DNA from: Patescibacteria group bacterium
GTDB lineage: Bacteria > Patescibacteriota > Patescibacteriia > Patescibacteriales > UBA12465
Reading direction: 5' to 3'
Assembly (NCBI GenBank): GCA_050949525.1
Contig: JBMNFW010000001.1
Span: 591,890 to 655,889 of the forward strand
Length of the DNA stretch: 64,000 bases
Of this stretch, positions 20,774 to 64,000 are shown one piece after another. Position numbers and translations under genes: made by a program. The number at the start of each line of letters is the position of its first letter. The first letter of the stretch is position 1. The notes under the pieces were generated by a model, which ran no database searches, was not told where the DNA came from, and saw nothing but the letters and a program-made list of their open reading frames with translations.

Positions 20774-20780
20774 AAAATAA

Positions 20781-42066: not shown

Positions 42067-42871
42067 ATGAAAAGAGATAATAAGTCTCAGATAGCTAAAG
42101 ATCTAGGCATATCTCGTCAATTAATATATTATCCAGCATAAACAAGAAATAAAAGATTGGAATTTAAAGGTTAAAATAGAAGAAGTTTTACATGATTTTC
42201 CTAGTTACGGACATAAAAGATTGGCTGTTCATTTGAAAATTAATAAAAAAAGAATACTTCGAGTAATGAAATTATTTGGTATTAAGCCCTATCGTCGCAA
42301 AACTAAGAAATTTAAGTATGTTAAAGTAAATAGAGACATAGAATTTCCTAATCTATTATTAAATAATATACCCGAGTATCCCAATCATATCTGGGCTAGT
42401 GATTTTACCCATATTAAATATCAGGGAAAATTTATATATTTAGCTACTATTATTGATTTATATACTAGAAAAATAGTTGGATTTAGTATTTTAACTAATC
42501 ATAGTAATCAATTGATAATTAATGCTTTGTTTTCAGCTACCAACAACAATTCGATAGCCAAAATAATTCATTCTGATAGAGGCAGTGAATACACCTCTTA
42601 TGATTATTCAGGTATTTGTAAAAATTTAGGAATAAAACAATCTATGAGTAGGCCAGGATGTCCTTGGGAAAATGGCTATCAAGAATCATTCTACTGTCAG
42701 TTTAAATTAGATTTAGGTGATCCTGATAGATTTGGTAGTTTAGGAGAATTGATATATAATATTTATAGAACTATTTATAGGTATAATAATTTAAGAATAC
42801 ATTCAAAATTAAAAATGCCGCCTGTTATTTACAGCCGGCTTTATCAGGAATCTTGCAAGAATAGTGTCTAA
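42067..42871 (+). pseudogene. IS3-family transposase OrfB (DDE integrase core) with a 1-nt frameshift
   Basis: The -1 frame reads KRDNKSQIAKDLGISRQLIYYPA and stops at 42139..42141. The rve domain (HIWASDFTHI...IIDLYTRKIVG...IHSDRGSEYTS...ENGYQESF) continues in the +1 frame from 42125. This is consistent with an extra C near 42133..42134. Confidence 0.7.
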
Positions 42872-47968: not shown

Positions 47969-47982
47969 ATGTTAAATTTATA

Positions 47983-48660
47983 TTACTCAACTTGCAACTT
48001 CCTAATATCAACTAGGGGTTGATTACGAGAAGTTTCTGGATTATACGAATTATAGTACAACTCAATTAACTCCTGAGTGTTTAATTGTTTTACATCTACT
48101 CCCAAAGATAATAAAGCTGAAAAAATACTATCAACTCGACGAGATAAAGATTCTTTATACTTTAAAAATCTAGCCTCTTTTAATCTCAAAATTGTAGCTG
48201 GTTTTAATAATTCCGATAATTGAGAAAAGAACCCCTTTCTTTGATCAGAAAAAGGACTATAAGGCACTACCACAAAAAACTTCTTATTCATAATCTTTCC
48301 CATCGAAACTAATTCTTTAATATATTCAATATACTCACTAGTTTGTATTTTTAATAATTGATTGGTTTGTTCTCTTTCCTTACTTCGTAAAAGATCAATA
48401 TAGCCATCAATATTTAAATCTCGCGATTGAATAACAATTTGAATTGGAGTACTAATATTATTTAAAAATCGAACATAAGAAGAAATAATAGCATTTTGTT
48501 CATCCTCACTTTTTAAAGCAAAATTAATACTCGAAACTAATAAAACAGCTCGTAAAGTTCCATCTCGCATTACTACTGTATTATCTTTTATTTCCAAAAT
48601 ATCTAAATACTGTTGAGTGGAAACATTAGTAACTTTTTTCCCTTTATTTTTTCCAACCAT
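47983..48660 (-). CDS. Hypothetical protein resembling the N-terminal domain of VirB4-type ATPases
   Basis: QQYLDILEIKDNTVVMRDGTLRAVLLVSSINFALKSEDEQNAIISSYVRFLNNISTPIQIVIQS follows the pattern I associate with the N-terminal region of Gram-positive VirB4 homologs. There is no P-loop. Confidence 0.35.
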   Translation of the reverse strand: MVGKNKGKKVTNVSTQQYLDILEIKDNTVVMRDGTLRAVLLVSSINFALKSEDEQNAIISSYVRFLNNISTPIQIVIQSRDLNIDGYIDLLRSKEREQTNQLLKIQTSEYIEYIKELVSMGKIMNKKFFVVVPYSPFSDQRKGFFSQLSELLKPATILRLKEARFLKYKESLSRRVDSIFSALLSLGVDVKQLNTQELIELYYNSYNPETSRNQPLVDIRKLQVE

Positions 48661-48666
48661 ATATAT

Positions 48667-49110
48667 TTAAAATTTACTTTTAATTTCATCACTATCTCCG
48701 CCTCGATAACGACCCTTAGTATCAACAATCAGAGAAATTTCAGCCAATTTTTCTTTAGAGAAATATTTTTTCGGAGGTAAAATATTCTCATATTCAATTT
48801 CCTTTTCTTCCTTTTTTTCTAAGCTTAAAGCTTTGTGATTCCAGACTCTTAGTTTCGGTTTCTTAACAGTTTGAATTAAGCTAAGAACAAAAAAATGAAA
48901 AGGACGTCCATTAATTTTTAAAAAAGCAAAAGTTCCCGCAATAGCAAATATTAAAACTGAAATTAAAACAAAAGCAGTAAAATCAAATAATTTATAAGTT
49001 AAAAAGATCATTAAACCCGCCGCTAAAAAAATCAAAAACTGCCTAGTAGTTATAGGTCCGATAATCTTAGGCTCAACATCAATAAATTGCGGAACGGTAA
49101 ATTGCTGCAT
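48667..49110 (-). CDS. PrgI-family (VirB3-like) small membrane protein
   Basis: MQQFTVPQFIDVEPKIIGPITTRQFLIFLAAGLMIFLTYKLF with two TM helices. Its position just upstream of the VirB4 region matches Gram-positive T4SS loci. Confidence 0.65.
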   Translation of the reverse strand: MQQFTVPQFIDVEPKIIGPITTRQFLIFLAAGLMIFLTYKLFDFTAFVLISVLIFAIAGTFAFLKINGRPFHFFVLSLIQTVKKPKLRVWNHKALSLEKKEEKEIEYENILPPKKYFSKEKLAEISLIVDTKGRYRGGDSDEIKSKF

Positions 49111-49112
49111 AC

Positions 49113-50306
49113 TTAAAAAGTTAATTCTCTATTAAACTTAATAATAGTATCTAATTCTTCTCGGGTCAAATAATCATCATTATTATTTCTAAAATACTCA
49201 ATCACTTCATCCAAACTAAGGGATTCATTACTGGCCTTAAAAAACATCTTTAAATATAGTCGATTAACTGGACTTTGCCGCCAAGCTTTAATACCCTCGA
49301 TCATTTTACCATAATCTATACCCTCTAAAACCTTTAATTTCTGAGCTACCTTTTTTAAAGCTTCCTGAGGATCAGATGATAATCTTCTAAAATTTACTAA
49401 ATCTAAATACCGAATTTCATCAATAGGTCCAGTTATTTTTACTCTTTTAACATCAGTCATAGGAACTTTTCCACTCGGGGTGATAGGACTAACTGGAGTA
49501 GAAACCTTAACCTGAACTTCTTTTAGCTCTTCCTCGACCTCTTCTTCTTCTTCCTCTCCTTCCGAACTAATAATGGGTAAACTAAAAGATTCTTCATCTA
49601 ATTCACGCCGAGGAGAAGGTAAATGAAAAACATCCTCTTCAGGTGATATCATTAATAACTCTTCTTTAGGAGCAATTAATCCATGTTTTAATTGACCAAT
49701 TTTATTCAGAACCCCTGATTCCACTTGAAAAGAAGATTTTAATTCTTCCTTATCCTTCTCTAGCACTTCCTGAATAATCATAAAAATATTATCAATCATT
49801 TTATTGGTCAAACCAAAACCACCACTATCCTGATTAATGAGTAAAGTCTCTCGAACATCATAACGTCCTTTTACTCCTCGTAAATATTTTTCCAAAAGAT
49901 CTATAAACGCAGCTTCTTTCTCTGAATTATTAAATTTGAACTGTAAAATTCTAATAATCTCTTTAGCCCAAAAATTAACCTTCTGATTATATGGACTAAT
50001 CTCAGGCTCTGATTCTTCCACTTCAGAAACTAAACCTAAATAAGGGAGAACGGAGAAAAAAATCTCAGCTTTTAAATCTTCTACCAAAGATAAAGCTTGA
50101 TCCTCTTCTAAACCTAAATCTAAGCCTAAAATTAAAGATAAATTTTTAAAATTAAGATCCTTAACCATGATTCTCATAATCATCGGGGCTAAATCAACCT
50201 GATACTTTTTCTCTAAAACACTAATCTTCTCCAGGGCTTCAGGAGAAGAAACGACTTTCTTTAATTCAGGACTTAATTGTTTAAATCTATCTAAATAATC
50301 AAACAT
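49113..50306 (-). CDS. Hypothetical protein (acidic central linker)
   Basis: 397-aa ORF with a poly-Glu stretch (SSEGEEEEEEVEEELKE). No family recognised. It lies within the T4SS-like operon, 2 nt from the next gene. Confidence 0.5.
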   Translation of the reverse strand: MFDYLDRFKQLSPELKKVVSSPEALEKISVLEKKYQVDLAPMIMRIMVKDLNFKNLSLILGLDLGLEEDQALSLVEDLKAEIFFSVLPYLGLVSEVEESEPEISPYNQKVNFWAKEIIRILQFKFNNSEKEAAFIDLLEKYLRGVKGRYDVRETLLINQDSGGFGLTNKMIDNIFMIIQEVLEKDKEELKSSFQVESGVLNKIGQLKHGLIAPKEELLMISPEEDVFHLPSPRRELDEESFSLPIISSEGEEEEEEVEEELKEVQVKVSTPVSPITPSGKVPMTDVKRVKITGPIDEIRYLDLVNFRRLSSDPQEALKKVAQKLKVLEGIDYGKMIEGIKAWRQSPVNRLYLKMFFKASNESLSLDEVIEYFRNNNDDYLTREELDTIIKFNRELTF

Positions 50307-50309
50307 ATA

Positions 50310-51434
50310 TTATGCTTTTTGACTAAGCTTTTTTATTTCACTTTCAATAGCCTTACGTTCTAAGCTATTAGCCGGATATTGCTCTAAAGACTTTTTCAAT
50401 TTAACAATTTTTGGATCTTCGACTGGTTTTTCAAGCTTCTTTTTTATAACTGGAGCTGGCTTTTTATTATCAACTTTCTTTTCCACCTTCTCTGGTTTAG
50501 ATACTGGCACTGCTTTTTCTACTTTTTGTTGAAAAACTGGCTCAGAGATAACATCTAGAGGGATAATAACCCAATCTTCTCGTGGAACACCAGTCATAGA
50601 ATCAGGGAAAAATACTAAATTTTTATACAATTTCAACACCTTTCTTAAAAGACTTTTTTCACCACTTGATAATTTTAAAACTTCTGAAGAAGAGCTTAAA
50701 TATTTAGCTAGAGCAATATTATTAGGCATATCACTACCATTTTCTTTAATAAAATGAGTAATCCAATTGGCAATACTAGGTTCTTGCTCTTTACCATCGA
50801 CTAAAACTCCCTGTGAAGAAATCAATTCCTTATTAGACATTAAAGCTCGACTAAATTTATTAAGAGAATCCGGTTTATTGATTAATAAATACAGTAATGA
50901 ACCATTAACATATTGTGAACCTTCGGTATCTGAATCTAATAATAATTCTAATAAATCTTCTTCTAAATAATTTATCACTATCTTTTCCTCCTCTTCTTCA
51001 TCAAAATCTTCAAGAAAATCCTCAACTAAATCAGCCACAATATCAAAATTAGTATCTTCAATTAAAGTTTTTAAATTATCAATGTTTTTTTTGTAATTAT
51101 CAGGGTTTCCTCCGCGTTCCTTAATCTCTTTTTTTATATCCAAATTTAAAAAACCCTCTAAAGGAAGAAATATTTTTCCTAGGAAATCAATAATAAAGTC
51201 TTTAGAGTTATTAAGATTAAATTGATGTTCCTCTAAACTTTTAGTTATAACTTCAATTTTGAAATCTGAAACAAAATAATCAACAATAATATCATAGATA
51301 TCATCAGAGCTTAAACCATATTTTAAGGCTAAGTCAGCTCGATCTTTTTGATCATGAATAGAAGAAAAATAAAGATTAACCTCTTCTGGTAATTGACTTA
51401 AAATTTGTAAAAATTTTATATTTTTATCCTCCAT
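50310..51434 (-). CDS. Hypothetical protein (acidic, Lys-rich C-terminus)
   Basis: 374-aa ORF with no family recognised, 3 nt from the next gene. The N-terminal ~95 aa loosely resemble those of the 397-aa neighbour. Confidence 0.5.
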   Translation of the reverse strand: MEDKNIKFLQILSQLPEEVNLYFSSIHDQKDRADLALKYGLSSDDIYDIIVDYFVSDFKIEVITKSLEEHQFNLNNSKDFIIDFLGKIFLPLEGFLNLDIKKEIKERGGNPDNYKKNIDNLKTLIEDTNFDIVADLVEDFLEDFDEEEEEKIVINYLEEDLLELLLDSDTEGSQYVNGSLLYLLINKPDSLNKFSRALMSNKELISSQGVLVDGKEQEPSIANWITHFIKENGSDMPNNIALAKYLSSSSEVLKLSSGEKSLLRKVLKLYKNLVFFPDSMTGVPREDWVIIPLDVISEPVFQQKVEKAVPVSKPEKVEKKVDNKKPAPVIKKKLEKPVEDPKIVKLKKSLEQYPANSLERKAIESEIKKLSQKA

Positions 51435-51456
51435 AAATATTTTAAATAATGATTAA

Positions 51457-54204
51457 TTAAGCAGAACCTCTTCTTAAAAAGTCCATAACTGATCTAGTTA
51501 TAGCTTGATGACTAGTACTAGTATCAAGCTGCATTTTTCTAAGCATGCCATTAAGACCTTCTCTAAACTTTTCCTGATCATTACTAGCAGCTAGATTCTG
51601 AAGTCTTTGTATTCTACCAGTATCAGCAAAGAAAGAGCGTAAACTTTCTAAACCTTTAACAGAACTAGTTAATTTTCTTAGCTCTGATTCCTTGATTCCA
51701 GATAAATATCTTTCTTTTTCCGAATTATCATCAAAAGCATCTAAGCTACCATCAAGACCGGCTAAGGCTACTCGAACACCAAAATTTTCTGAAGAAGCTG
51801 GTAAATTCTTTAAAGCTAATTCAATCTTTTGCTGTTGACCACGAGTCTGTTTATCATGCATCGATGAAAATTGAGTTGGACTTAAAACTTCAGCCAATTT
51901 AGGCATAAGTAAATCTAAAGACGCTTGATCTGTAATATTTTCTAATTTAATGGTTCCATTAACAATACCTCTAATAATCTTATTCTGAGCTTGGTTATGT
52001 TTATACTCTCGAGATCTTCTTTGTTCATCACTTTCATGATCTGATGATGGCTCAGCGGTTTGTTGCATTTCAACAAAATTTTGAGATAAATTTTGATAAT
52101 TACCAATCAAGGCTGAATCTAATTGTTCCATAACTCCCTGGTTTCTGCCATAAGACTTAGAAATATCATCTCGCTTAATTTTAGCTTCATGCTCCGATAA
52201 TCCACCTCTTTCCAAAAGCATTAAAGTAGCAGCGGTTCGTCTAGCTCGATTACCAATTGAATTATTATCCATCTCCTTCCTAAGCTCATCATCATCAAAA
52301 TTCTTCATCTCATCTTTATATTTAGAAACAGTAGCTGATCGTTGATCACGAGCTGCTCTCATATCCTCTCTACCAGAACGATTAATTTTATTAGCTAATC
52401 CAAAAGGAAGAATTATAGCAGAAGTTATAGAGAAAGCTTTGTCTACATTTTTAGCTTTATCTATTCGACTAGCTAAATTTTTTTCTTTTCCTTCTATACC
52501 AGCATCCATGATACTTATTCTATTATCCATATTCTCTTTTGCCCTATTCATATCAATATCATCAAAAGACCCTAATTCAGATCCGGTTAATTCATTATAT
52601 CTACTTAAAACATCTGCTTTTTGTTGATCAATAGCATACTTTTCATCTACTTCCCGTAAACCTTGATCAGCTTCATTTTTAATTTGATCCATTTCTTTTT
52701 GATATTCTATAGTATCAATATCTCCATCTTTCCATTGTTGCACTAATCCTTTCATATCCTCATCCCTCTTATTAATTATCTCCTGTTGTTCTTGTTGTTT
52801 ATTTTCCTCTTGTTCTAAAATTACACTAATTGTCCCTTCTAGTTCACCTAATTCTAATCTCTGATTTTCTAAATTCTCTTTTTCAGCCTGATCCATAGCA
52901 ATATCCTCTCTAGCTTTATCAATATTTTTCTGTGAAGAACTACCTTTAACTTTTTCTTTAGCCCACTGAAGAGGTTGAGTAAGTGTTGTTTTTAGTGCTC
53001 CAACACCTGTTTGAATTACGCCAGCATCTCTTTGGGCTGTAGCTTGTCTCTCTGATTCTTTTTTAGCTTTGTAAGCTTTAACAGCATTTTGAGCTCTTTC
53101 AATACCAGTAACTCTCTTAGCCCCCCTTTGAACCCCTTTCACAGCTCCAGCTCCCATTGATTGAAGTTTAGCCATACCTTTTCCAGCAATCTTTCCGGCC
53201 ATTCCTCCCATCTCTTGAGCAATCATTAATCCCCCCACTAACATTCCGATAGAAACTAAAAACTTTATCATATGCTCAAAACTTCCAGCTGTAGTTATAG
53301 TCGCACTAACATCAGAACTATTTACATCAACTCCAGCTACTGCAGGGCCCATCTTTTCCATTTCAGCAGAACCCTCAACTCCACCTAAAGAAGCAAAAGA
53401 AAGCCATAAAAAGAAAGCTATTATTGGTCCCACTATTACATTTTTCGAAAAATCACTCCACCATCTCTCAGAATATTTCTTACCTTGAGGAAAAGAGGCT
53501 AATAAATAAGCTAGGGGAGATAAAACAATATATATCCAAATCATTACCATTCGAACAATTATCATCATTAACATTACTACTATTACTACTACAGCAACTA
53601 TCATCATTATAACACCTAAAATGACAGAACTTAAAATAGTCCAACCACTTACCTCTATACCCTCAACTTCACTTTCATTAAATTCTAAAATTTTAGAAAC
53701 TCCAAGCAACTCAATCATAGTACCTCCGGTTATTTCCTTAACAGCACCAATAAAAGTTAACATAATGACTTGAGCAAAATCAATAATAACCCCACAAATC
53801 AATTTAGAAAAATTAATCAAAATGGCCATGATGACTAATTTAGGCAACCAAGTTTTTAGATTATAACTCTCTACTCTTAATATAGTAGCAAAAGCGATTA
53901 CTAATAATATCAAAACAAAAAACATGTTAGCGAAATCCCTAACTATAGTCCAACCATAAGTAACTGCTGCAGACTTAATAAAGTCATTATACTGAGCAAT
54001 TGCAATTAATATACTTAAAAATAAGGAAACTAATTTTCCCAATAGCCAAATAACAGGAAGAAGTATCCAAGCAATAAGTTTAGCTATACTATTTCCTATC
54101 CCAGCTTGTGCTAAATTCGGAAAAAATAAAAAAACAACAGACCCTAAAATTATACAAGAAAAAAATATGATACTATTTTTATTCTTTTTAAAAAATATTT
54201 TCAT
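51457..54204 (-). CDS. TrbL/VirB6-like polytopic membrane protein with a ~570-aa coiled-coil/charged C-terminal extension
   Basis: About 8-9 TM helices in the first ~340 aa, including IVLSPLAYLLASFPQGKKYSERWWSDF. The rest is hydrophilic and rich in Gln/Glu/Lys. Confidence 0.55.
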   Translation of the reverse strand: MKIFFKKNKNSIIFFSCIILGSVVFLFFPNLAQAGIGNSIAKLIAWILLPVIWLLGKLVSLFLSILIAIAQYNDFIKSAAVTYGWTIVRDFANMFFVLILLVIAFATILRVESYNLKTWLPKLVIMAILINFSKLICGVIIDFAQVIMLTFIGAVKEITGGTMIELLGVSKILEFNESEVEGIEVSGWTILSSVILGVIMMIVAVVVIVVMLMMIIVRMVMIWIYIVLSPLAYLLASFPQGKKYSERWWSDFSKNVIVGPIIAFFLWLSFASLGGVEGSAEMEKMGPAVAGVDVNSSDVSATITTAGSFEHMIKFLVSIGMLVGGLMIAQEMGGMAGKIAGKGMAKLQSMGAGAVKGVQRGAKRVTGIERAQNAVKAYKAKKESERQATAQRDAGVIQTGVGALKTTLTQPLQWAKEKVKGSSSQKNIDKAREDIAMDQAEKENLENQRLELGELEGTISVILEQEENKQQEQQEIINKRDEDMKGLVQQWKDGDIDTIEYQKEMDQIKNEADQGLREVDEKYAIDQQKADVLSRYNELTGSELGSFDDIDMNRAKENMDNRISIMDAGIEGKEKNLASRIDKAKNVDKAFSITSAIILPFGLANKINRSGREDMRAARDQRSATVSKYKDEMKNFDDDELRKEMDNNSIGNRARRTAATLMLLERGGLSEHEAKIKRDDISKSYGRNQGVMEQLDSALIGNYQNLSQNFVEMQQTAEPSSDHESDEQRRSREYKHNQAQNKIIRGIVNGTIKLENITDQASLDLLMPKLAEVLSPTQFSSMHDKQTRGQQQKIELALKNLPASSENFGVRVALAGLDGSLDAFDDNSEKERYLSGIKESELRKLTSSVKGLESLRSFFADTGRIQRLQNLAASNDQEKFREGLNGMLRKMQLDTSTSHQAITRSVMDFLRRGSA

Positions 54205-54215
54205 AATTATTCGAA

Positions 54216-55157
54216 TTAAAATAAATCAAAAACTATTTTAAATCCTTCAAATATCAGTTTAAAAATTCCAAATGGCTCTAAAAACAACTTCCAGATAACT
54301 GTAATTGTTATAGTTAATATCGGATAAATAACTATACTTATAATAAAACAAGTACACCCAACTAACGACTTTTCTATGCAACCGATCTTCTTCCCAATTT
54401 CTTTAGCTTTTTCAGGTGAAGCCTTACTAATTTCCTCCGGAACCCATTCTTGACCAAGATCACAAAATAACTTAGGAAAAACTTGAGACCAAAACCAATG
54501 AGCATATATATACAACAGGGTTAAACCAAAACTATCAATTATATTTTGCCAAGCAGTTTTTAAAAGCTTTTTTAAAGATTTAGCCATACCACTAGTGCCC
54601 TTATCTGACTCCTGACTAATACCGCCTTTAACTTTACCAGCGTCTTTATTCTTATCTTTCTTTTTATTAACTTGTAATTCAGCTTCTTTTTTACTTTCTG
54701 AATCATCACTAGCTGATTCTTTTTCAGTCTCATCTTCTTTATCCTTATTCTTTTTATTTTCTGAATCATCACTAGCTGATTCTTTTTCAGCCTCATCTTC
54801 TTTATCCTTATTCTGAGTAGGTTCATTCCCAAAACTCTTATCATCTCCTGTCTCCTCTCCAGAACTATCACTTCTCGCTTCCTTATCCTTAGTCTTTTTA
54901 TTTTCTGAATCATCACTAGCTGATTCTTTTTCAGCCTCATCTTCTTTATCCTTATTCTCACCTTCTAAACCTCCTTCTTCATCTTCTTCAAAATTACCAC
55001 CACTCTCATCTCGAGAAACTTTTTTATCTCGAGCTAAGCTACTGGCTAATAAAGCTTCCGACTGATCCTTAATTTTTTTCTTTACCTCCTCAATAACATC
55101 CTCTCCTAATTCATCGTCTACTTTTTCCTCAATTTTATCAAGTTCTTCAGTTAACAT
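54216..55157 (-). CDS. Hypothetical protein: acidic repeat-containing N-terminal half, C-terminal hydrophobic hairpins
   Basis: Three copies of NKDKEDE(A/T)EKESASDDSE(N/S)KK. C-terminal TM segments (FGLTLLYIYAHWFWSQVF; CTCFIISIVIYPILTITITVIW). It is the first gene of the operon. Confidence 0.55.
   Translation of the reverse strand: MLTEELDKIEEKVDDELGEDVIEEVKKKIKDQSEALLASSLARDKKVSRDESGGNFEEDEEGGLEGENKDKEDEAEKESASDDSENKKTKDKEARSDSSGEETGDDKSFGNEPTQNKDKEDEAEKESASDDSENKKNKDKEDETEKESASDDSESKKEAELQVNKKKDKNKDAGKVKGGISQESDKGTSGMAKSLKKLLKTAWQNIIDSFGLTLLYIYAHWFWSQVFPKLFCDLGQEWVPEEISKASPEKAKEIGKKIGCIEKSLVGCTCFIISIVIYPILTITITVIWKLFLEPFGIFKLIFEGFKIVFDLF
54687..54956 (-). repeat. 63-bp in-frame coding repeats (3 copies)
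   Basis: Copies lie at 54894..54956, 54750..54812 and 54687..54749; the last two are tandem. Each encodes a 21-aa acidic unit. Confidence 0.85.
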
Positions 55158-55209
55158 AGAAGCAAAAAATAATTCTTAAACTTAAAAATTTCTTAATCTT
55201 TATATAATT

Positions 55210-55238
55210 ATTATACAATAAAAAAAATACTTTGACAA
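55210..55238 (-). promoter_or_regulatory. Candidate promoter of the T4SS-like operon
   Basis: On the minus strand: TTGTCA (plus-strand 55233..55238), 17-nt spacer, TATAAT (55210..55215), 53 nt upstream of the ATG at 55157. Confidence 0.45.
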
Positions 55239-55290
55239 ATAAAAAAATACTAAAAAATTAAAATTAAAAATAGAATCCATTAACCAACTA

Positions 55291-56376
55291 TGAATAAGTT
55301 CAGATACATTTTGGAAAATAAAAAGCCCAAAATGTATGCAGATAAAGTTTAAGTACTATAATTGTCCCGGATTTGGTACATTATATAATGATGCAATTAA
55401 GCAAAAATATATGATTACCAAAGAAGCTAGACAAAGACTCAAAATATTAGAATTTTGGAAGCAATATGGCCTTCAAGCCACTACTGATGCCTTTGGGGTT
55501 AAAAAATCTACCCTATATAATTGGCAAAAAATATTTAGAGAAGGGGGTGGCAAGATAGAAGCTCTCAATCCTAAATCCCAAGCTAGGATTAACAAGAATA
55601 AAAGAGAAATACATCCTCTGATATTAAAAGAGATTAGACGTTTAAGACTAGAGATTTGTCCTAATATGGATAAAACTAAAGTTAAAAAATTTTTAGATAA
55701 ATTTTGTGAAATTAATAATTTACCAATATACTCAGAATCAAAGATAGGTAGAATTATTAAAGATAAAGATATATATCATCATAGACAGAAAATATCTCAT
55801 TTTGGTAAGATTAAAAAAATTAAAAAAACTAAAAAGAAAAGAAAACCTAAGGAATTACAAGTAAATAATCCTGGGGATTTAATAGAGATAGATACTGTTG
55901 TTAGATTTCACAATGGATTAAAGAGATATATTATTACCGCTGTTGATACTTTTAGCCGAACAGCTTTCGCTTATGCCTATAACAGAATTAGTAGCTCTAA
56001 TGCTAAAGATTTTTTTAAAAAATTAGAAGAAGTCATGCCCTTTAATATTAAGGCTGTTCAGACTGATAATGGTTTAGAATTCCATCTCTATTTTAAAAAA
56101 TACTTAGAAGAGAGAAAAATTGAGCATTATTTCAATTATCCAGGTAGACCATACAAACAGGGTCATATTGAGAAGTTTAATAGGACTATTCAAGAAGAAT
56201 TCATTGATTGGAGTGGTGAAAAATACTTTGATAATTTAGATGATTTTAATAATTTGTTAATTGATTGGCTTCTTTGGTATAATACCGATAGACCACATTG
56301 GAGCCTTGAATTAGTATCTCCGATGAATTATTTGGTTAATAATAATTTTTTTTCCAAAATGACGTGGACTAATACA
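55291..56376 (+). mobile_element. IS481-family-like insertion sequence, copy 2
   Basis: Same 1086-bp element as 20781..21866, in the same orientation. It is flanked by a 5-bp direct repeat AACTA (55286..55290 and 56377..56381). Confidence 0.85.
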
Positions 56377-56385
56377 AACTATTGA
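55336..56385 (+). CDS. IS transposase (HTH + DDE/rve), copy 2
   Basis: Identical to copy 1 except G->D at the residue encoded at 55669..55671 and a different C-terminal tail. The TGA stop (56383..56385) lies in flanking DNA. Confidence 0.85.
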   Translation: MQIKFKYYNCPGFGTLYNDAIKQKYMITKEARQRLKILEFWKQYGLQATTDAFGVKKSTLYNWQKIFREGGGKIEALNPKSQARINKNKREIHPLILKEIRRLRLEICPNMDKTKVKKFLDKFCEINNLPIYSESKIGRIIKDKDIYHHRQKISHFGKIKKIKKTKKKRKPKELQVNNPGDLIEIDTVVRFHNGLKRYIITAVDTFSRTAFAYAYNRISSSNAKDFFKKLEEVMPFNIKAVQTDNGLEFHLYFKKYLEERKIEHYFNYPGRPYKQGHIEKFNRTIQEEFIDWSGEKYFDNLDDFNNLLIDWLLWYNTDRPHWSLELVSPMNYLVNNNFFSKMTWTNTNY

Positions 56386-56438
56386 CAAAGTTTTATTATT
56401 ATTATAATCTAATATTAGAACTTTAAAAATTTAATATC

Positions 56439-57635
56439 ATGAAAAAAATAGTTTATTTATTCGCATTATTAACTTTGACCTTAGGCTTAGAAGGTCAAAA
56501 TTTTCACTTTGAAAAAGTGGCTACCCTTGAAGAAGAGGTATTTATAAAGTTATACGTATTTAATACTCAAGCATTTGCTTCAACATACGAAACATTTTAT
56601 TTTTACAATGGAGAATCATTTGAACAACTCCCCTATTTTATTGATACTAAAACCGTATCAGGATTTGAAAAAAATGATGGAAGTATTTTTGCTGCTGGTC
56701 TTCGAGGCAATTATATTTATTTATGGCAACCTGAAATTAAGCAATGGCAAAAAGTATTTGAAAGTGAAAATCAATGTTTTCAGAAAACATTTGTTTTAAA
56801 CGAAGATAGTATTTATCTTTGTGGCTATGACGAAAATTATAATCAAAATGGCTATATTTACCTATTCAATCCTAAAAACAAAGTTCTTAAAACAATTATT
56901 CAGTTTAATAACCAAAGCTATTCTACTGGTTTTATGGAAGCAAAAAATCATAATAATATCTTTCTCTATTTCGGTAGTAATCAAAAAAAATTATGGCAGA
57001 AATATAATGGAGAAAATATAGAAACTTTGTATACTTTTGAAAATGAGATTCATTATTATGAAATAAAATCCTCTCCTGACACTTCAACTTTCTTTTTTTT
57101 GTCTTTTTCCAGAGAAATGATGTATTACTGGAAAGAAAATGAGCAAAAAATGGACTCTATTGACTTAGAAATTTATATTAAAAGTTTTTTTCCTTTAGAT
57201 AATGAAAATTTAATGATATTTTCATCAGAAGGAGCTTATACTTTTAATATTAAAAACAAAACTCCGCATAAAATTACTGGAACTGAGTATCTCGGAATGG
57301 ATCTCCAATCTGGTTATACTGGAAAAGGAAATGCTTTCTTAATTAGCAAAAAAAACTTTTACAAAATAACTATTGTTGGATCAAGTAATCAATTTAAAGA
57401 AATAGATAATATTTCTTTTTATCCTAATCCAGTAAATAATATTTTATGGATAGACTGCCCAATAGAAGGAGAAAAAAATATAAAAATAATTGATTTAAAA
57501 GGTCAAATATTAACAGAAAGATTTTTTAATTCTAACAATTTGAATCTTAATACATCTGATCTAAGCCCAGGTGTATATATAGTTCAAATTAAGAGCATAA
57601 AAGGAATAACTAATCAGAAATTAATAAAAAACTAA
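56439..57635 (+). CDS. Secreted protein with a T9SS-type (Por secretion system) C-terminal sorting domain
   Basis: Signal peptide MKKIVYLFALLTLTLGLEG. The C-terminal ~75 aa, ISFYPNPVNNILWIDCP...IKIIDLKGQILTERFF...LNTSDLSPGVYIVQIKSIKGITNQKLIKN, match the Bacteroidota Por_Secre_tail pattern. The body is Tyr/Asn/Phe-rich and may be a beta-propeller. Confidence 0.7.
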   Translation: MKKIVYLFALLTLTLGLEGQNFHFEKVATLEEEVFIKLYVFNTQAFASTYETFYFYNGESFEQLPYFIDTKTVSGFEKNDGSIFAAGLRGNYIYLWQPEIKQWQKVFESENQCFQKTFVLNEDSIYLCGYDENYNQNGYIYLFNPKNKVLKTIIQFNNQSYSTGFMEAKNHNNIFLYFGSNQKKLWQKYNGENIETLYTFENEIHYYEIKSSPDTSTFFFLSFSREMMYYWKENEQKMDSIDLEIYIKSFFPLDNENLMIFSSEGAYTFNIKNKTPHKITGTEYLGMDLQSGYTGKGNAFLISKKNFYKITIVGSSNQFKEIDNISFYPNPVNNILWIDCPIEGEKNIKIIDLKGQILTERFFNSNNLNLNTSDLSPGVYIVQIKSIKGITNQKLIKN

Positions 57636-57647
57636 TATTCCTAAACT

Positions 57648-57674
57648 AAATCCCATCATAAGATGGGATTTTTT
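57648..57674. terminator. Bidirectional hairpin terminator
   Basis: 10-bp stem AAATCCCATC / GATGGGATTT with loop ATAA, then a T-run. It lies between convergent genes. Confidence 0.65.
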
Positions 57675-57689
57675 AGATTCAAGGCTTAA

Positions 57690-60600
57690 TTAAAGCAAAC
57701 AATTTTTACAACTATTACTAAAGTTATTAGGGTCTAAGTTTTCTTCAAAATTATTACGACAAATATCACATTCTACATTATTATTATTTATCTTACCCAT
57801 CCCACTATCATAATATTTATAAAATCCCCAATTATCTACCACCTTAATAAGAACTATATATTTACCCTTAGATAGTTGTAAAGAATAATTATGAGGAGAG
57901 TTAATATCTGATAAACTATCAATATTCACGGGCATATATGATCCAACAAGGTTAAATTTATCATCATCAACTCTTACAACCCTGATAATTAATTTTTTAA
58001 TTGGGGTTTGATTTTTGTTAATCTCAGTATTCAATGTTACAGTATAAATTCCAGAATTTTTAATATCATAAATACCACTAGTTGATACAACGGCACTTCC
58101 TTGATCATCTATTATATTTACACGAGAGACTTGAGGAAGCTGAGCTTTAAACTCAATCTTACCCGGTAAATAATCACCCGAAGGAACATTATTATTAGCA
58201 GACACACCTTCTAAATATGATCCCATATTTGGAGACCCTTGATCTGAAATACTTAATATTCCATCACCATTATTATAAGCAAAGCTATAAAAATACTTAT
58301 TATTCGTGCCACTAATTTCATCTCTAGCAATCCTCATTTCTATCCAAATATTCTTTAATCGATTTACAATTACTCTCCAATACCAGTTCTTTTCATCTAT
58401 TGATGCATTTGGATAGTAATAGTCACCGTCAACAGTAATCAAACCAGAATAACTATTTCCAAAATGATTCAAATTTAAAAGATCAGTTCTTTTTATAACA
58501 TCTTTATCTCCTGAAATATCTGCGGCACTTATTGTGGCATTAGCATATCCTAAAACCCTAATTTTATTATTATTATCAAGATAAAGTAATGAACAAGGAG
58601 AAACATTTAACAATTTATCACTTCTTGAAAAGGTTCTTCCATGACCATAACATGATAACGGTAATCCATATCTACCATTACTAAATACTGACCCACCTTC
58701 CCCAGCATAAACTTTTACCGAAGAGTCTAAATTACCACTACTTTCATTAATAGCTCCAAAAGGAGGATGTGAACTTCCGAGCACATACTTACTAAAAACA
58801 TTATCAGTATTAGGTTCATCAAAAAATTTGACAAGACTATGTGGTGAATTACTAACTCTATCAACCCAAGGAGTAATACCCTGAACTATCTTAGTACATT
58901 TAGGAACATATTTACCTAAATCCATTAAACATCCATGTTGTTCACTATTATTTATTGGTACCCATTGTCCACCAATTTCCGAATTACTACATTCTTCAGA
59001 AGTATAATCATAAGCTAATAATTTTATTTTTTTCTCTACATAATTACTATTTTCTGTTGGATGTTTTTTATTTAATAAATTTCCATCATATTTATACCAT
59101 CCGGCACTAGTTGTTATAAGAACCCTTTTATCGGTGTCTCTTTTTTCATAATAATAACTTTTTTCTCCTTTATTATTATCATAAACATGAGCCCTTACAG
59201 CATATTGAGTTGTTCCATCAACACCTTCATCAAAAACTCCTTTCCTCCCTTCAGTACAAGCATTGCTATCATCATCAAAATAACAACACTTTAATCCATC
59301 ACAATCTCCATCATATGCGTATGGTAAACAAGCTTTACCTGGTCCTTCTTGTGTTAAATAGTCTAAAATACTAAGCTTATTTGATGAACTAGCTATTATT
59401 AAATCATCATTCTTTCTAGGAGCACAAACAGAAATCATTGTGTATGCAAAACCAGTACCACCATATTTAACTCCAGTCTCTGGAGTAAAAGTATTTTCGC
59501 CAAACGCATCATCATTATTACATTTTCCCTTTTTCGGAGATCTAGTAGCATATACAATTGCATAATATTTTTTTTCTTCATCACAAAATCTTCCATCTAT
59601 TACTCCTAAATCCATCAAACACTCTTCTAGCCACGGATAATCTACATGATCTACTAAAACTAAATAATTAGCTGCAGAAACCCCCTTATAAAGACTTCCG
59701 GATCTTCTCATAAAAGTATAAACTTGAGGACCAGACTCTGCAGTAGAAGTACATTTAGTCTTTCCATTCTCATCATAATATGTTTTAAATTTCACACCAA
59801 AAAGATTATCAAGCTCATTAAATGGAAACTCAATTATAGCATCTCTTTTTCTTAAAATATTATCAAACACAAACCCTTTTCCAACCCAACCTATAAATCT
59901 ATTACTGGATACTCCCCTCATAACTCCATCATAGTATACATCTCGATACTCCACCAAATCAAAATTAGCACTCATTGTAGCACAATAAAAAGGTTGAGCT
60001 CCACTCTCTGGATAACCAGTAAAAGCAGTGCTAGCTCCGGATGAACCCTTAGAACCACTAACAGCATCAATTGGATACCATAATAGACAAACATCAGGAT
60101 TTCGTGGATCTTTCTCTAAACAATAACCATACCAACCATTTTGAATAACATTCCTATTAGATGACTCACAAATTAAACTATCCTGACTTGGGAAAAGACG
60201 ACAAGTAGCTTGAACATATTTATTATCACTAATCTCTAAAATTGGCTCAATTACTATTTTATCAACATAGAAAACTCCCCCTGAACTAGATCTAAAAACA
60301 ATATCAGCTTCTCCATTCCAATCTACTTCACTTTTAAATTTTAAACTATAATCTTTCCAATTACTTTCTTTACCAATCTCAATTCTAAAATTACTATTAT
60401 CCGATGCTCCTTTTTTTCCTACTATAACCTCAACTTTTTCATTAAACCCTATTTCACTAGTATTCATCATAAAGCTAAGATAATATTCACCGGTTCCGGC
60501 AATATTTTCAGTTTTCTTAACACCATTATTATTTCCATTAGTACAAGGATTTTTACCCAGTTTCAAAAAGCCTAAATTATGAGCTGGATAAGTAACTTTA

Positions 60601-63600
60601 TCTCCCATACCTCCATGACTAGCTCGATTTATCCAACAATTACGTTTATTATCATCGCTTCCTAACCAATATTTAAAATTTGACTCTTGCTCAAAGTCAT
60701 ATGATACAGCAGGATCATCTTGCCCGACCTCCAACATATTAGATAAATGATTCATTCCTAAAACCGAATAACCGCTAGCGTTCAAATCTCGACTAGCCTG
60801 ATAAACTCGAGCACCCCCCTCTGATTTAACATAATTAAGACAGGCTCCATCTTGTCTAAAAGCTGAGCACTCTCCTAAAGACAAGCAGGTAGTTTCTTTG
60901 GTTTCATTATTAACAGTATAGGAAGTACAGGATAACCATTTACCACAAACTCTATTAGGACGAACCTTTATTAAAGCATTAGCATCACAATTATATTCTG
61001 AACAAGTTGAATAATTAGTATAATCAGATGAATTAAAATTCAAACTTGAAATCTCACCACTATTACTAAAAGCTCTTTCATTAAAGACAGCACAACCAGT
61101 GCTTAAATTAGCCTGACCATTACAAGAACTAAAATCCAAATTAGTTTTGATCTGATAATCAACTAAAGCTTCTTTAATGCTAACTAAATAATTTTGTCCA
61201 TTATCACTACCACTAGGCAACTCATCCACTACTTCAAATTGACTCACCTTATAATACAATTTACAAGAATCATCATTATTATTTCCTGAATAGAATATAG
61301 CCTTAGGAGAAGCTGGGGAAACTCTAACAGCATCTACTTCTGGTGAAAAAATATTAGAACCTGGTTGTAATACCCTTAAAGAATTATCACAAACCAAATC
61401 TAATGAAGATTCGGCTCCTTTAATCTCCATGACGTATAATTTATTAGGATTAATTGGTAAAAACCCTTCTTGTATAAATTCGATGTAATAATAATTACCA
61501 ACATTTTTACACATTAAACCATTAGATCTCATCACACACCTTATATTAGGGTTACTGTTACTAGTATTCCAATAATCAAAATACATTCCATCTCCATTAA
61601 CATCAGAAAAGTTTGGATTATTAATTATATTCTGAGAGAAAGAGCTCTCAGGATCAATGTATTCTGTACATCCAGATTGACTAATTGGACAAGCTCCAGC
61701 CCAAGTAATACCAAATTCTTCACTAGGATGATACATTGGACTTTCGCCTCCTAGACCAATAGTTTTTAAAGGCTCAACCGGACATAAATAATCAGCTGTA
61801 TCTAATTCACAACTTTGACCTTCAGAGCAATCTTCAGAGCTATTACAAATATTATTGGTAAAGCTATTACCCACTTTACATCTCTTAACCGCTTTTTTAT
61901 ACCAAGAATAATTATTATTACTTAAACCTTTACGCCATAAACAAATCTTATCGCCCGGATCTTTGAAATATGAAACACCGGCTGATGAATTCCAAGAATC
62001 ACAACCTACTTCTTCAGCCTGACAAAGAGTTGATTCTAAATTATCTGGATTAATTTTTATATAAGTATCAGAAAATAGGTTCTGAGAAACAGTATATGGA
62101 TTATTAGCAATAACCTTACCTAAACGACGACAAGCTTTATTATCAGCTCCACAATCTTTATCAGGATTATAGGCAATAGCGGTAAAGCTATCAGCTGGGA
62201 CTAATAAACAATCAGCTTCATCAGCATCACAAACTCCATTATTATTCTTATCATTAAAAATCTTAGAACCTCTATCAGTAGAATTATGAGTATCAACAAC
62301 AATCTCACAACCCACTGCTGACTCATCGCAAAGACTAGAGAAATGTCGTAAATGATGACTTTGATTATTATGATCGCTATAATTCTGACAACCTAAGTTA
62401 TAATTAACTCCTTGATAAACACCACTAACATCGTAATAACAAATCTCCGGTGTATTCCAAGAATTTTTAATTAAATAATAACGATCACTTATTTCTAATA
62501 AATTAATATTAGCAATGTATAGATTTCCAGATCCATTGAGACTAAACTTTAAAACTTCCTCATCCCCTATTTTATGATCTAAATTTTCTAAATTAACTTG
62601 ATATAATTTCCAATCATTACTAGAACTTAAATTAAGACTATAGGAAGCATCGGGATTTCCACTAACTCCAAAGAGGGCCTCAGATCCATTATTAGAATTA
62701 AATGAAATTGATAAATTTTGATTCTGAGGACTACGAGCTAAGAATCTTAAAACATAAGATGATCCTTCTCGGACTAAATCTGATACATCAGTCTTAGCTG
62801 CTCCACTTAACTTCATTGATTGACCTCCTTGATTTAGAGATTCAGTACTAGTGCTAACTTCTCCTTCCCAAAAATCAACTTGATGTCCACTATTAAAGTT
62901 GAAAGATAGAACATTTCTAACACTATTTCCAGTATTACCATTATACTCACGGCAACCATTAGCTGAAGCCGGACAAGATTGTCCCTCTCCTGGAATAGCT
63001 TGATAAATACAAGCTTCTTGAGTAGTATCCCATTTTCCACCAGCTAAACATTCATAACAAACATTTAAAGTATTATCCCAATGTTGATTAGTGGAATTAT
63101 TACAAGCTGCAGAACTATTGATATTATAATTGATATTCTTTTCACTTAAACGATAAACTTTACAATTATCAGAACAGGTGATGGTATTAGAGTATAATAC
63201 ATAGAAAATTTCTCCACCTTGGTTATAGAATTCCTGACAATCGGGATTATGTAATGGATCAGATGGCTCTTTGTTATAAATATCCTTACTACATAAAATC
63301 TCTGTTTGTGAACCAGATTGAACTAAATGATTATAGGAATTATTAGAACTGCCACTAGGACTAATATATCCTCTAGTCAATTTTAATTTATTATTTTGAA
63401 TTTCTAAATTAAAAGATTTTAATTGATAACCAGATTCATCACTACCTTGCCAAGAATAAAAACTATTGCAAGTTCCTTGATCAGGTTTAATACAATGTCT
63501 TAATTGAGTATAATACTCTCTAGACTCTCCCCCAGCCGCCAAGCTTTCTAAATTAGTAAATTCAGTACAACCAACATTAGCCGCACTACAAGCTTGAGCT

Positions 63601-64000
63601 GATTCTGGAATCATTTTAACTACTGATTTATTTTCAAATAATGAATCCTTTTGCACAAAAACATCATAACCAACACAATTACTAGGACAATAATCCTTAT
63701 CACCCACCTTAGCCGCTACTCTAAGATATGGCGAAGTAAAAAGACTACAACCAATTTCATTACTATTACATAAACGAGCATAGTTATAACAAATATCAGG
63801 AGCATTTTCTTTTAAACGATAATCAGGCTGACTAGAACCAGCATTGTTATAGCAAACTCCTTTCAAATAATCGGGAATGATTTTTTGATAAGCTAAACTT
63901 GATTCACGATAATTAGAATAATAAGTTCCTCGAACACCTCGTTCTAACTTTATATTATCAATCATACAGTCATCAGAATCGGGATTAATACCAAAATTAA
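57690..64000 (-). CDS. Giant Cys-rich extracellular-type protein (over 2100 aa; N-terminus outside the window)
   Basis: The track ORF starts at the Met at 63965, but I find the frame stays open to the window edge (upstream residues ...NFGINPDSDDC-MIDNIK). By my count it has about 77 Cys. It shows the recurring motif C-x5-8-G-C-x-[ELS]-[FYW], a TSP3-like DKNNNGVCDADEADC and three regions with a CBM/jelly-roll-like pattern. Confidence 0.8.
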   Translation of the reverse strand, partial: NFGINPDSDDCMIDNIKLERGVRGTYYSNYRESSLAYQKIIPDYLKGVCYNNAGSSQPDYRLKENAPDICYNYARLCNSNEIGCSLFTSPYLRVAAKVGDKDYCPSNCVGYDVFVQKDSLFENKSVVKMIPESAQACSAANVGCTEFTNLESLAAGGESREYYTQLRHCIKPDQGTCNSFYSWQGSDESGYQLKSFNLEIQNNKLKLTRGYISPSGSSNNSYNHLVQSGSQTEILCSKDIYNKEPSDPLHNPDCQEFYNQGGEIFYVLYSNTITCSDNCKVYRLSEKNINYNINSSAACNNSTNQHWDNTLNVCYECLAGGKWDTTQEACIYQAIPGEGQSCPASANGCREYNGNTGNSVRNVLSFNFNSGHQVDFWEGEVSTSTESLNQGGQSMKLSGAAKTDVSDLVREGSSYVLRFLARSPQNQNLSISFNSNNGSEALFGVSGNPDASYSLNLSSSNDWKLYQVNLENLDHKIGDEEVLKFSLNGSGNLYIANINLLEISDRYYLIKNSWNTPEICYYDVSGVYQGVNYNLGCQNYSDHNNQSHHLRHFSSLCDESAVGCEIVVDTHNSTDRGSKIFNDKNNNGVCDADEADCLLVPADSFTAIAYNPDKDCGADNKACRRLGKVIANNPYTVSQNLFSDTYIKINPDNLESTLCQAEEVGCDSWNSSAGVSYFKDPGDKICLWRKGLSNNNYSWYKKAVKRCKVGNSFTNNICNSSEDCSEGQSCELDTADYLCPVEPLKTIGLGGESPMYHPSEEFGITWAGACPISQSGCTEYIDPESSFSQNIINNPNFSDVNGDGMYFDYWNTSNSNPNIRCVMRSNGLMCKNVGNYYYIEFIQEGFLPINPNKLYVMEIKGAESSLDLVCDNSLRVLQPGSNIFSPEVDAVRVSPASPKAIFYSGNNNDDSCKLYYKVSQFEVVDELPSGSDNGQNYLVSIKEALVDYQIKTNLDFSSCNGQANLSTGCAVFNERAFSNSGEISSLNFNSSDYTNYSTCSEYNCDANALIKVRPNRVCGKWLSCTSYTVNNETKETTCLSLGECSAFRQDGACLNYVKSEGGARVYQASRDLNASGYSVLGMNHLSNMLEVGQDDPAVSYDFEQESNFKYWLGSDDNKRNCWINRASHGGMGDKVTYPAHNLGFLKLGKNPCTNGNNNGVKKTENIAGTGEYYLSFMMNTSEIGFNEKVEVIVGKKGASDNSNFRIEIGKESNWKDYSLKFKSEVDWNGEADIVFRSSSGGVFYVDKIVIEPILEISDNKYVQATCRLFPSQDSLICESSNRNVIQNGWYGYCLEKDPRNPDVCLLWYPIDAVSGSKGSSGASTAFTGYPESGAQPFYCATMSANFDLVEYRDVYYDGVMRGVSSNRFIGWVGKGFVFDNILRKRDAIIEFPFNELDNLFGVKFKTYYDENGKTKCTSTAESGPQVYTFMRRSGSLYKGVSAANYLVLVDHVDYPWLEECLMDLGVIDGRFCDEEKKYYAIVYATRSPKKGKCNNDDAFGENTFTPETGVKYGGTGFAYTMISVCAPRKNDDLIIASSSNKLSILDYLTQEGPGKACLPYAYDGDCDGLKCCYFDDDSNACTEGRKGVFDEGVDGTTQYAVRAHVYDNNKGEKSYYYEKRDTDKRVLITTSAGWYKYDGNLLNKKHPTENSNYVEKKIKLLAYDYTSEECSNSEIGGQWVPINNSEQHGCLMDLGKYVPKCTKIVQGITPWVDRVSNSPHSLVKFFDEPNTDNVFSKYVLGSSHPPFGAINESSGNLDSSVKVYAGEGGSVFSNGRYGLPLSCYGHGRTFSRSDKLLNVSPCSLLYLDNNNKIRVLGYANATISAADISGDKDVIKRTDLLNLNHFGNSYSGLITVDGDYYYPNASIDEKNWYWRVIVNRLKNIWIEMRIARDEISGTNNKYFYSFAYNNGDGILSISDQGSPNMGSYLEGVSANNNVPSGDYLPGKIEFKAQLPQVSRVNIIDDQGSAVVSTSGIYDIKNSGIYTVTLNTEINKNQTPIKKLIIRVVRVDDDKFNLVGSYMPVNIDSLSDINSPHNYSLQLSKGKYIVLIKVVDNWGFYKYYDSGMGKINNNNVECDICRNNFEENLDPNNFSNSCKNCLL

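Follow-up and report, generated by a model that had tools for sequence, protein, structure and literature searches.

The stretch of DNA analysed here, referred to as the window throughout, comprises 64,000 nucleotides (positions 591,890 to 655,889 of the forward strand) of contig JBMNFW010000001.1 from a Patescibacteria group bacterium (GenBank assembly GCA_050949525.1), and near its right-hand end lies a gene for a 398-aa protein that carries a type IX secretion system (T9SS) sorting tail. Such tails are treated as markers of diderm bacteria of the Bacteroidota/FCB (Fibrobacteres, Chlorobi and Bacteroidetes) group; here, one is resident, conserved and fast-diversifying in a candidate phyla radiation (CPR) clade that is expected to be unable to use it. 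The gene is genuine and chromosomal, in a Patescibacteria genome with Falkowbacteria as relatives, and can be dismissed neither as an artefact of assembly nor as an isolated foreign acquisition. NCBI annotates its product as 'T9SS type A sorting domain-containing protein', and the identical protein is also found on the JGI contig Ga0534105_00092 and in two Logan assemblies; this contig, to which exact matches assign the other window proteins as well, is 742,870 bp long, against 740,209 bp in NCBI. The gene and its parts are as follows, where CTD denotes the C-terminal sorting domain, ORF an open reading frame, and AF2 the AlphaFold2 model.

56382..56438, plus strand: upstream conserved region, beginning with a TTGACA box (56382..56387), putatively promoter-like
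56439..57635, plus strand: gene for the propeller and CTD protein (ORF, 398 aa; NCBI MGI6348200.1)
56439..56495, plus strand: signal peptide MKKIVYLFALLTLTLGLEG, cleavage predicted before Q20 (by inspection and AF2)
56499..57377, plus strand: beta-propeller of ~7 blades, aa 21-313, the variable part (AF2, Foldseek and allele comparison)
57420..57632, plus strand: T9SS type A C-terminal sorting domain, aa 328-398, with the motifs YPNP, GVY and KLIKN (PF18962, TIGR04183 and AF2)
57648..57671, no strand: hairpin terminator between two convergent genes (10-bp stem, 4-nt loop, then a T-run)

The putative signal peptide, recognized by inspection rather than with a dedicated predictor, has a basic n-region (MKK), a hydrophobic core, and a predicted LEG/Q cleavage site, and the AF2 model, built from six family sequences with a mean predicted local distance difference test score (pLDDT) of 81.5, places a helix at aa 2-14 of this region at pLDDT <50. 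The predicted +1 residue, Q20, is invariant across the family; Gln at +1 after the signal peptide is the Q-rule of Bacteroidetes, reported to be specific to that group (PMC5837995). Residues 21-313 are modeled as 28 strands, mostly at pLDDT 80-94, and the best Foldseek matches of the propeller in the Protein Data Bank are the Bacteroides periplasmic propellers BT4663/BT4673 and PorZ (5m11), followed by generic WD40 propellers. PorZ itself has both beta-propellers and a CTD.

A linker of low confidence (aa 315-321, pLDDT <50) lies between the propeller and the CTD, which occupies the extreme C terminus (aa 328-398 of 398). An earlier interpretation made from the letters of the DNA, hereafter the sequence-only reading, had taken this end of the protein to be a T9SS sorting tail, and searches with curated hidden Markov models (HMMs) bear this out, scoring well above both cut-offs: aa 328-396 are recognized by Por_Secre_tail of Pfam (PF18962) with 48.8 bits (E=9e-13; cut-off 27), and aa 328-398 by the NCBIfam type A model TIGR04183 with 50 bits (E=2e-13; cut-off 23). 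The predicted fold agrees, with a seven-strand beta-sandwich at aa 325-397 (block pLDDT 69-87; a prediction), T9SS CTDs being compact seven-strand Ig-like beta-sandwiches (PMC11285876), and the sequence aligns with the solved CTD-bearing chains 5jvk and 8glj_D. Invariant residues of the domain are Y328, P329, N330, P331, G355, L375, G378, Y380, K394, and K397; the protein ends in QKLIKN, in which K394 and K397 are invariant in 11 family members, and a conserved C-terminal motif of the CTD is required for T9SS function in P. gingivalis (PMC11285876). Judged by the curated HMM thresholds and the predicted fold, the tail is thus a true CTD of the T9SS type A kind.

In its overall build, the protein resembles T9SS type A cargo of Bacteroidota (e.g. 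RgpB), with a predicted Sec-type signal peptide followed by Gln at +1, a functional domain, a linker and a sandwich CTD in which both the N-terminal YPNP and the C-terminal KxxK motifs are conserved. Unlike such cargo, it is encoded in Patescibacteria and adjoins a monoderm-type cluster resembling a type IV secretion system (T4SS) and a giant protein, with no T9SS or gliding genes. The sequence-only reading had seen nothing else related to the T9SS, and our scans likewise gave no second CTD in the window, and neither T9SS components (SprA/Sov, PorU, PorV, PorK-N, PorZ) nor signs of an outer membrane in the 64-kb window and its flanks. To our knowledge, Patescibacteria have no outer membrane, lipopolysaccharide, or T9SS; on this general knowledge, export by a T9SS of the cell itself, cleavage by PorU, and attachment to anionic lipopolysaccharide are impossible.

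The gene stands between two neighbors that recur in its relatives, and together with one of them it forms a variable block.

46061..55157, minus strand: T4SS-like cluster encoding a VirB4-like ATPase, TraC-like and PrgI proteins, 397-aa and 374-aa proteins, a 915-aa protein with multiple transmembrane segments, and an acidic 313-aa protein (Pfam, gene tables)
57690..63965, minus strand: last 2091 aa of a giant protein (2924 aa) rich in Cys and Asn, convergent with the CTD gene (ORF, continues beyond the window)
56520..59990, no strand: hypervariable block comprising the coding region of the mature CTD protein, the terminator, and ~770 codons at the end of the giant gene (comparison with locus L008)

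Compared with L008, a locus from an independent run, the window is 98-100% identical per 100-nt window at 54929..56519 (with an insertion sequence (IS), described below, removed) and mostly 96-100% identical at 59992..63965, where five 100-nt windows reach 92-95%. Inside the block, over ~3.5 kb, identity is 45-80% apart from a few short conserved windows, with many indels. On comparison with a further locus, L104, the gene and the last ~160 giant codons are 91-100% identical (97-99% for the gene), and divergence is confined to 58171..59944 (46-76% identity), inside the giant gene; because L104 diverges only there, at least two segments recombine independently. Flanked by clonal sequence in the window's population, the mature part of the CTD gene and the region for the giant protein's C terminus make up a hypervariable cassette that recombines, and the giant proteins are 2924, 2911, and 2852 aa long. 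The 2924-aa protein has no Pfam family match, no recognizable toxin domain, and no recognizable delivery domain (T5SS/T6SS/T7SS, RHS/YD, or VENN), and a single-sequence AF2 model of its C-terminal 366 aa (pLDDT 41.7) is uninterpretable.

The variation stops short of the 5' end of the gene. Positions 56382..56438 are near-identical in the window, L008, and L009, while the gene bodies are ~70% identical, and the signal-peptide DNA is near-identical among the CPR alleles of the window's clade (clade A; synonymous divergence, dS=0) despite bodies of ~70% identity. The TTGACA box at 56382..56387 is not among the full promoter matches of a consensus scan.

Within the protein, the CTD is conserved more than the propeller in 54 of 55 pairs (mean identity 40.5% versus 29.3%), and the ratio of nonsynonymous to synonymous substitution rates (dN/dS) between divergent alleles is 0.44-0.53 in the propeller and 0.13-0.16 in the CTD; the CTD is under purifying selection while the propeller diversifies. 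In close alleles, the counts of nonsynonymous to synonymous changes in the propeller are 24:1 (window versus L010), 15:0 (window versus L104), and 16:2 (L010 versus L104; P = 0.33), against 0:0 in the CTD of each pair, and these alleles also differ by two indels. Mutagenesis of the propeller by a diversity-generating retroelement was considered and rejected, as the differences spread over ~900 nt, are not adenine-specific, and include indels; no reverse transcriptase was found among the window ORFs scanned with Pfam. An enrichment of variable propeller sites in loops is unconvincing, with 12 of 22 sites outside strands versus 39% expected. One suggestion of the sequence-only reading was that the domain had been repurposed as a plain beta-sandwich, and purifying selection that is stronger on the CTD than on the rest of the protein is consistent with this, the repurposing itself being unproven.

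Possible spare copies of the cassette come from two short contigs of two metagenome assemblies, L010 (1..2573) and L011 (1..2305), each with a full family gene, 93% and 86% identical to that of the window, respectively. The two share 134 nt of upstream sequence unlike the upstream region in the window, and their convergent remnant of the giant gene is the last ~300 codons only, starting at a conserved PFGAIN motif. In L010, in-frame stops precede the giant fragment, and the first and last 40 nt of the contig are identical. These features are suggestive of a tandem array or circle of spare modules, known from short metagenome contigs and not placed in the genome of the window. Within the window itself, a family HMM and tblastn match only the gene, giving no silent cassettes.

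The genomic setting is that of CPR bacteria, as the sequence-only reading had supposed. The Pfam content of the window is CPR-like, with PrgI, a VirB4-like ATPase, a pilin-like ORF and fused housekeeping genes, and a scan of GTDB species representatives anchored on VirB4 gave 80 loci at 81-94% identity, the informative titles among which are Patescibacteria, mostly 'Candidatus Falkowbacteria'; to the MAGs (metagenome-assembled genomes) so titled, VirB4 is 82-94% identical. Its mention of pilins is supported by a 143-aa ORF (6053..6484) with the type IV pilin-like N terminus KKKAFTLIELI. The composition of the gene does not look foreign either, in line with the original interpretation: its G+C content is 25.9% against 31.3% for the window (the count of 12/60 given for 57001..57060 is exact), and its G+C at third codon positions (GC3) is 0.183, inside the genome range of 0.155-0.24.

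A feature that might have called the join between the gene and its surroundings into question is an IS directly upstream of it, present in a second copy elsewhere in the window.

20781..21866, plus strand: IS481-like insertion sequence copy 1, upstream of a tRNA cluster (sequence match to copy 2)
55286..55290, no strand: AACTA target-site duplication, left copy (L008 empty site)
55291..56376, plus strand: IS481-like insertion sequence copy 2, 1086 bp, with TG...CA ends and imperfect inverted repeats of ~30 bp (IS-free L008 allele)
55336..56385, plus strand: transposase ORF of IS copy 2, its stop codon in the flank
56377..56381, no strand: AACTA target-site duplication, right copy (L008 empty site)

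Both copies are real, at 99.7% identity over 1095 bp (20780..21874 and 55290..56384), and at least 10 variants of the transposase occur on the 742-kb contig. Copy 2 lies directly upstream of the TTGACA box that opens the conserved 5' region, the gene starting 62 nt past the IS end (56376), exactly as first described. The element is like the IS481 family in its rve DDE transposase with an N-terminal helix-turn-helix (Pfam rve, rve_3, and helix-turn-helix domains above cut-offs), TG...CA ends, imperfect inverted repeats, short target duplication, transposase ORF reaching the element end, and multiple copies in the genome; it is unlike that family in that its best NCBIfam match, IS481, scores 161.7 bits, below the cut-off of 224, in that JGI labels the transposase as IS30 family, and in that no target duplication was detected for copy 1. 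A tRNA-Ile/Met/Phe/Pro cluster begins ~80 nt downstream of copy 1, and a different, truncated rve-type transposase fragment lies at 42221..42871.

A mis-assembly that joined a Bacteroidota fragment to a CPR contig at this repeat had been raised as an explanation. The IS is multi-copy, and the short-read assembly L002 does break at it; however, L008 is IS-free and has both flanks contiguous, window positions 54929..55290 being joined straight to 56382 onwards with the empty site reading CCATTAACCAACTA joined to TTGACAAAG. The right flank (giant protein, TSP3-repeat protein, and KsgA) is colinear in L001, L002, and L104, of which L002 and L104 are independent assemblies of the gene together with the giant protein, TSP3, and KsgA genes, and the giant gene is homologous to genes on other CPR contigs. 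Because of the IS-free L008 allele and the colinear right flanks, the join is real and the IS is a strain-level insertion polymorphism; the chance left to a chimera is negligible.

Relatives of the protein are few. Word-indexed searches of 5.8 billion clusters returned six or seven clusters only, an exhaustive phmmer search of 1.84 billion representatives with the propeller as query gave 11 matches at E <1e-3, a third protein search added P0096 only, and no relatives of the propeller were found in phage, plasmid, or IMG/VR collections. Por_Secre_tail stands at the end of all six full-length relatives (400-438 aa), with Gln at the predicted +1 in every one; CTD HMM scores are 48.8-61.7 bits in the family versus 51.2 for a Bacteroidales homolog, and in the propeller the family has diverged to ~20% identity. 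Five or more divergent alleles have the gene intact, as do syntenic relatives at a greater distance.

At least nine lineages of the family reside in CPR genomes, beside a giant-protein homolog and/or upstream of the same T4SS-like cluster. For example, giant-protein homologs adjoin family members in L008, L009, L097, L101, and L104; P0004 and P0005 (51-54% identity) adjoin the same giant gene in CPR, and P0099 and P0092 follow giant-gene homologs in a tandem arrangement, the order giant gene then family gene being that of L097 and L101. In L018, L023, L025, L027, and L029, a family member is followed by an aminoacyl-tRNA synthetase gene and then by homologs of the 313-aa and 915-aa proteins (p313 and p915) and VirB4, L098 having the same order; P0100 and the partial copies in L018, L023, L025, and L029 lie upstream of the aminoacyl-tRNA synthetase gene. 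A family or CTD gene is found upstream of the T4SS-like cluster in L018, L023, L025, L027/L098, L029, and L058. Members of two further clades, B and C, were found in genome contigs through the VirB4 anchor, where an earlier alignment-pattern search had given none. The case of L058 (696..2165; a Patescibacteria metagenome-assembled genome (MAG) of 38.6% GC) involves an unrelated CTD protein of 490 aa, whose gene is the one immediately upstream of the T4SS-like cluster; its signal peptide ends in TMGQ, and its Por_Secre_tail match scores 38.5 bits. At the same locus of a further Patescibacteria MAG (L066, 1..1176), the encoded protein has fn3 and Fib_succ_major domains, the latter typical of the Fibrobacter/Bacteroidota group.

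The closest homolog outside the CPR is P0006, in the Bacteroidales MAG GCA_035357675.1, with 45-48% identity over the full length and 15 of 20 signal-peptide residues identical to those of the window protein. It is of the same length and architecture, with G+C of ~30% and the same annotation as a 'T9SS type A sorting domain-containing protein'. Its setting, on the other hand, differs from that of the window gene: in a diderm genome, it is flanked by lpxB and an AbiE toxin-antitoxin pair, with surE, lpxB, and tamB among its neighbors and without a giant or T4SS-like neighbor. AbiE-type toxin-antitoxin genes are found directly downstream of the family gene both in L004 (11324..13095, Bacteroidales) and in L097 (8112..9402, CPR); a shared AbiE module as vehicle between L004 and L097 was considered and dropped, the two AbiE sets having no detectable homology.

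Neighbor-joining trees gave three clades with CPR members in each; in them the Bacteroidales copy joins clade A, with 100% support on the C-terminal alignment of 164 columns and 72% on the full-length one. Because it stands either as sister to one CPR clade or within it, the tree gives no direction of transfer; one close relative in a Bacteroidales genome does mean at least one passage of the family between CPR and Bacteroidota. The idea of horizontal acquisition from Bacteroidota, put forward in the sequence-only reading, calls for revision: the closest non-CPR homolog is indeed from Bacteroidales (45%), but the family is resident and syntenic in many CPR genomes and was not acquired in a single recent event. 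The architecture (CTD and Q-rule) is of Bacteroidota type, but CPR is where the family, as sampled, has its centre.

We favor, with a probability of roughly 55%, the explanation that the product of the gene, exported by Sec, is polymorphic and serves in host interaction, its T9SS-type tail being retained for some role that needs no endogenous T9SS. The predicted product, a Sec signal peptide cut before Gln20 followed by a ~7-blade propeller, a short flexible linker, and a T9SS type A sandwich, would be exported by Sec to the exterior of a cell without an outer membrane. The propeller would be the variable face, binding ligands, of a module for recognizing a host or partner, and this module would act together with the giant protein and perhaps also with the T4SS-like system. 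The CTD could not serve an endogenous T9SS, and purifying selection would keep it as a docking or structural beta-sandwich.

Several points count against this explanation or limit how far it can be taken. Export, localization, and interaction with the giant protein are predictions, and the absence of a T9SS, outer-membrane genes, and glutaminyl cyclase genome-wide is taken from general knowledge of Patescibacteria rather than from a genome scan, the inspected part being the 64-kb window and ~10 kb beyond it of a 743-kb contig. The nonsynonymous excess in the propeller is marginal (P ~0.04-0.05 for window versus L010 and window versus L104), and the pairs are not independent. The trees are neighbor-joining and midpoint-rooted, with several nodes weakly supported. 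The organisms behind P0094, P0095, and P0096 are unassigned, CPR residence being read from the relatives with readable context. Finally, because the invariant residues of the CTD are T9SS-recognition motifs, a role related to a T9SS, that of a host or a cryptic one, is possible.

Among the other explanations, the locus may be a polymorphic toxin/immunity or tail-fibre/adhesin module, which we hold to be unlikely. The giant protein would then have an exchangeable C terminus, and the propeller and CTD protein would be its extracellular immunity, chaperone, or tip-adhesin partner, with orphan spares. Known polymorphic C-terminal cassettes include CdiA-CT/CdiI and Rhs-CT/immunity with orphan modules, and phage tip and adhesin pairs such as T4 gp37/gp38. 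As in such systems, a very large and presumably exported protein has a body that is near-identical between strains and a replaceable C terminus (the last ~770 codons), a small adjacent gene varies with it, and the recombination boundaries are sharp in a clonal background; further points in favor are the tandem order of giant then partner in L097 and L101, and the possible orphan cassettes L010 and L011, with a full gene, the last ~300 giant codons opening at the conserved PFGAIN motif, and the shared 134 nt upstream. Unlike in contact-dependent inhibition, Rhs, and phage systems, however, no toxin, delivery, or phage domain is recognized and the giant protein belongs to no Pfam family, the model of its C-terminal 366 aa giving nothing to interpret; the partner has a predicted signal peptide and a T9SS tail and is convergent, not tandem, in the window's clade. 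Co-variation is also incomplete, since against L104 an internal segment of the giant gene varies and the partner gene does not, and the orphan-like cassettes are known from short metagenome contigs. That the gene is instead a recent functionless passenger from Bacteroidota, possibly brought with the IS, is very improbable. It does adjoin an IS and has features of Bacteroidota type, but L008 lacks the IS at this very site, and the element is a plain insertion that duplicated its target; moreover, the gene is intact in divergent alleles and distant syntenic relatives, its dN/dS is below 1 and lowest in the CTD, its composition is native, and searches of phages, plasmids, and viral contigs gave no relatives.

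Two further explanations give the tail a sorting function, and both appear unlikely. The CPR clade may have its own unrecognized machinery for CTD processing or attachment, for example a sortase-like one, fixing cargo to the wall or S-layer. This would fit the purifying selection on the CTD in CPR, the second, unrelated CTD protein at the same locus in L058, and the flexible linker ahead of the CTD, a feature also of T9SS cargo that is cleaved; neither the window nor the flanks of the 80 related loci, where no systematic scan was made, gave a candidate enzyme, however, and we know of no precedent. Alternatively, the CTD and the +1 Gln may have been kept because the T9SS of a Bacteroidota host handles the protein, or the converse may hold, an acquired defence. 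In the exploitation form, the protein would be delivered to the host periplasm and displayed by the host as a symbiont receptor bound by the variable tip of the giant protein (cf. Tir/intimin); in the defence form, the Bacteroidales copy would have been captured from CPR and displayed through the T9SS as a decoy or defence. Consistent with this, YPNP, GxY, the terminal KxxK, and the +1 Gln, the last of these reported as specific to Bacteroidetes (PMC5837995), are invariant though the propeller is down to ~20% identity, a close homolog exists in a real Bacteroidales genome, and the gene has a T4SS-like machine linked to it and varies in step with the C terminus of the giant protein. On the other hand, the lineage has no known host, there is no known route from a CPR cell to a host periplasm, the motif residues may be kept for folding alone, the T4SS of Patescibacteria is conjugation-like and without demonstrated protein effectors (PMC12102498), and CTDs are poorly interchangeable even among Bacteroidota species (PMC11285876). 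More doubtful still is the specific picture of a CPR lineage living on Bacteroidota that keeps a host-type address, with the propeller and the exchangeable giant tip as a host-range receptor-ligand pair and spare cassettes elsewhere; it comes in two versions, in which either the host's T9SS displays the protein or the host has captured the gene as a decoy.

Whichever explanation holds, the gene adjoins genes for a T4SS-like machine and a giant putative surface protein, types of gene to which a part in the epibiotic lifestyle is ascribed, and raises the question of what a secretion tail does without its secretion system. The exchange of the family with Bacteroidales is a lead to the hosts of Parcubacteria-type CPR bacteria, and a CPR lineage living on Bacteroidota, if true, would for the first time let sequence itself point to the phylum that hosts a CPR lineage of Parcubacteria type. 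The locus also constitutes a new hypervariable block, made of a propeller and the tip of a giant protein, in otherwise clonal populations. For annotation, a match to Por_Secre_tail in a MAG should not be read as evidence of a T9SS or of Bacteroidota contamination. The searchable library yielded no paper describing T9SS tails in CPR or Patescibacteria; the database annotation of the tail already existed, and what appears to be new, from sequence comparison, is a family of T9SS-type cargo without a T9SS in a putative hypervariable host-interaction locus.

Other observations concern the window and its relatives at large. Many clearly CPR-like contigs (L017, L019-L021, L023, L024, L027, and others) are titled 'uncultured Gammaproteobacteria bacterium'; they have a VirB4 of 81-94% identity, the same T4SS-like cluster, and ~31% GC, and the title appears to be a placeholder or mislabel. 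In the T4SS-like cluster, an 81-nt repeat occurs three times at 54671..54958 (start-to-start distances of 63 and 144 nt), within the gene for the acidic 313-aa protein, the N-terminal acidic part of which is not conserved in related genomes, only the C-terminal membrane part being so. Genes of the window include those for ThyX, GatB, PBP2, PolA, MurD, PNPase, IF2, two ClpB, RadA, and a DsbA-like protein, and two fusions, one of MiaB (radical SAM/TRAM) and MiaA (IPP transferase) at 6459..8690 and one of an MraY-type glycosyltransferase and QueH at 32409..33941. A Shine-Dalgarno-like motif lies within 20 nt upstream of 5 of the 44 larger window genes, the genome being largely without such motifs. 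A 417-aa ORF with no Pfam match (27668..28921) stands out by its GC of 0.398 and GC3 of 0.344, compared with ~0.31 and ~0.20, respectively, in other genes.

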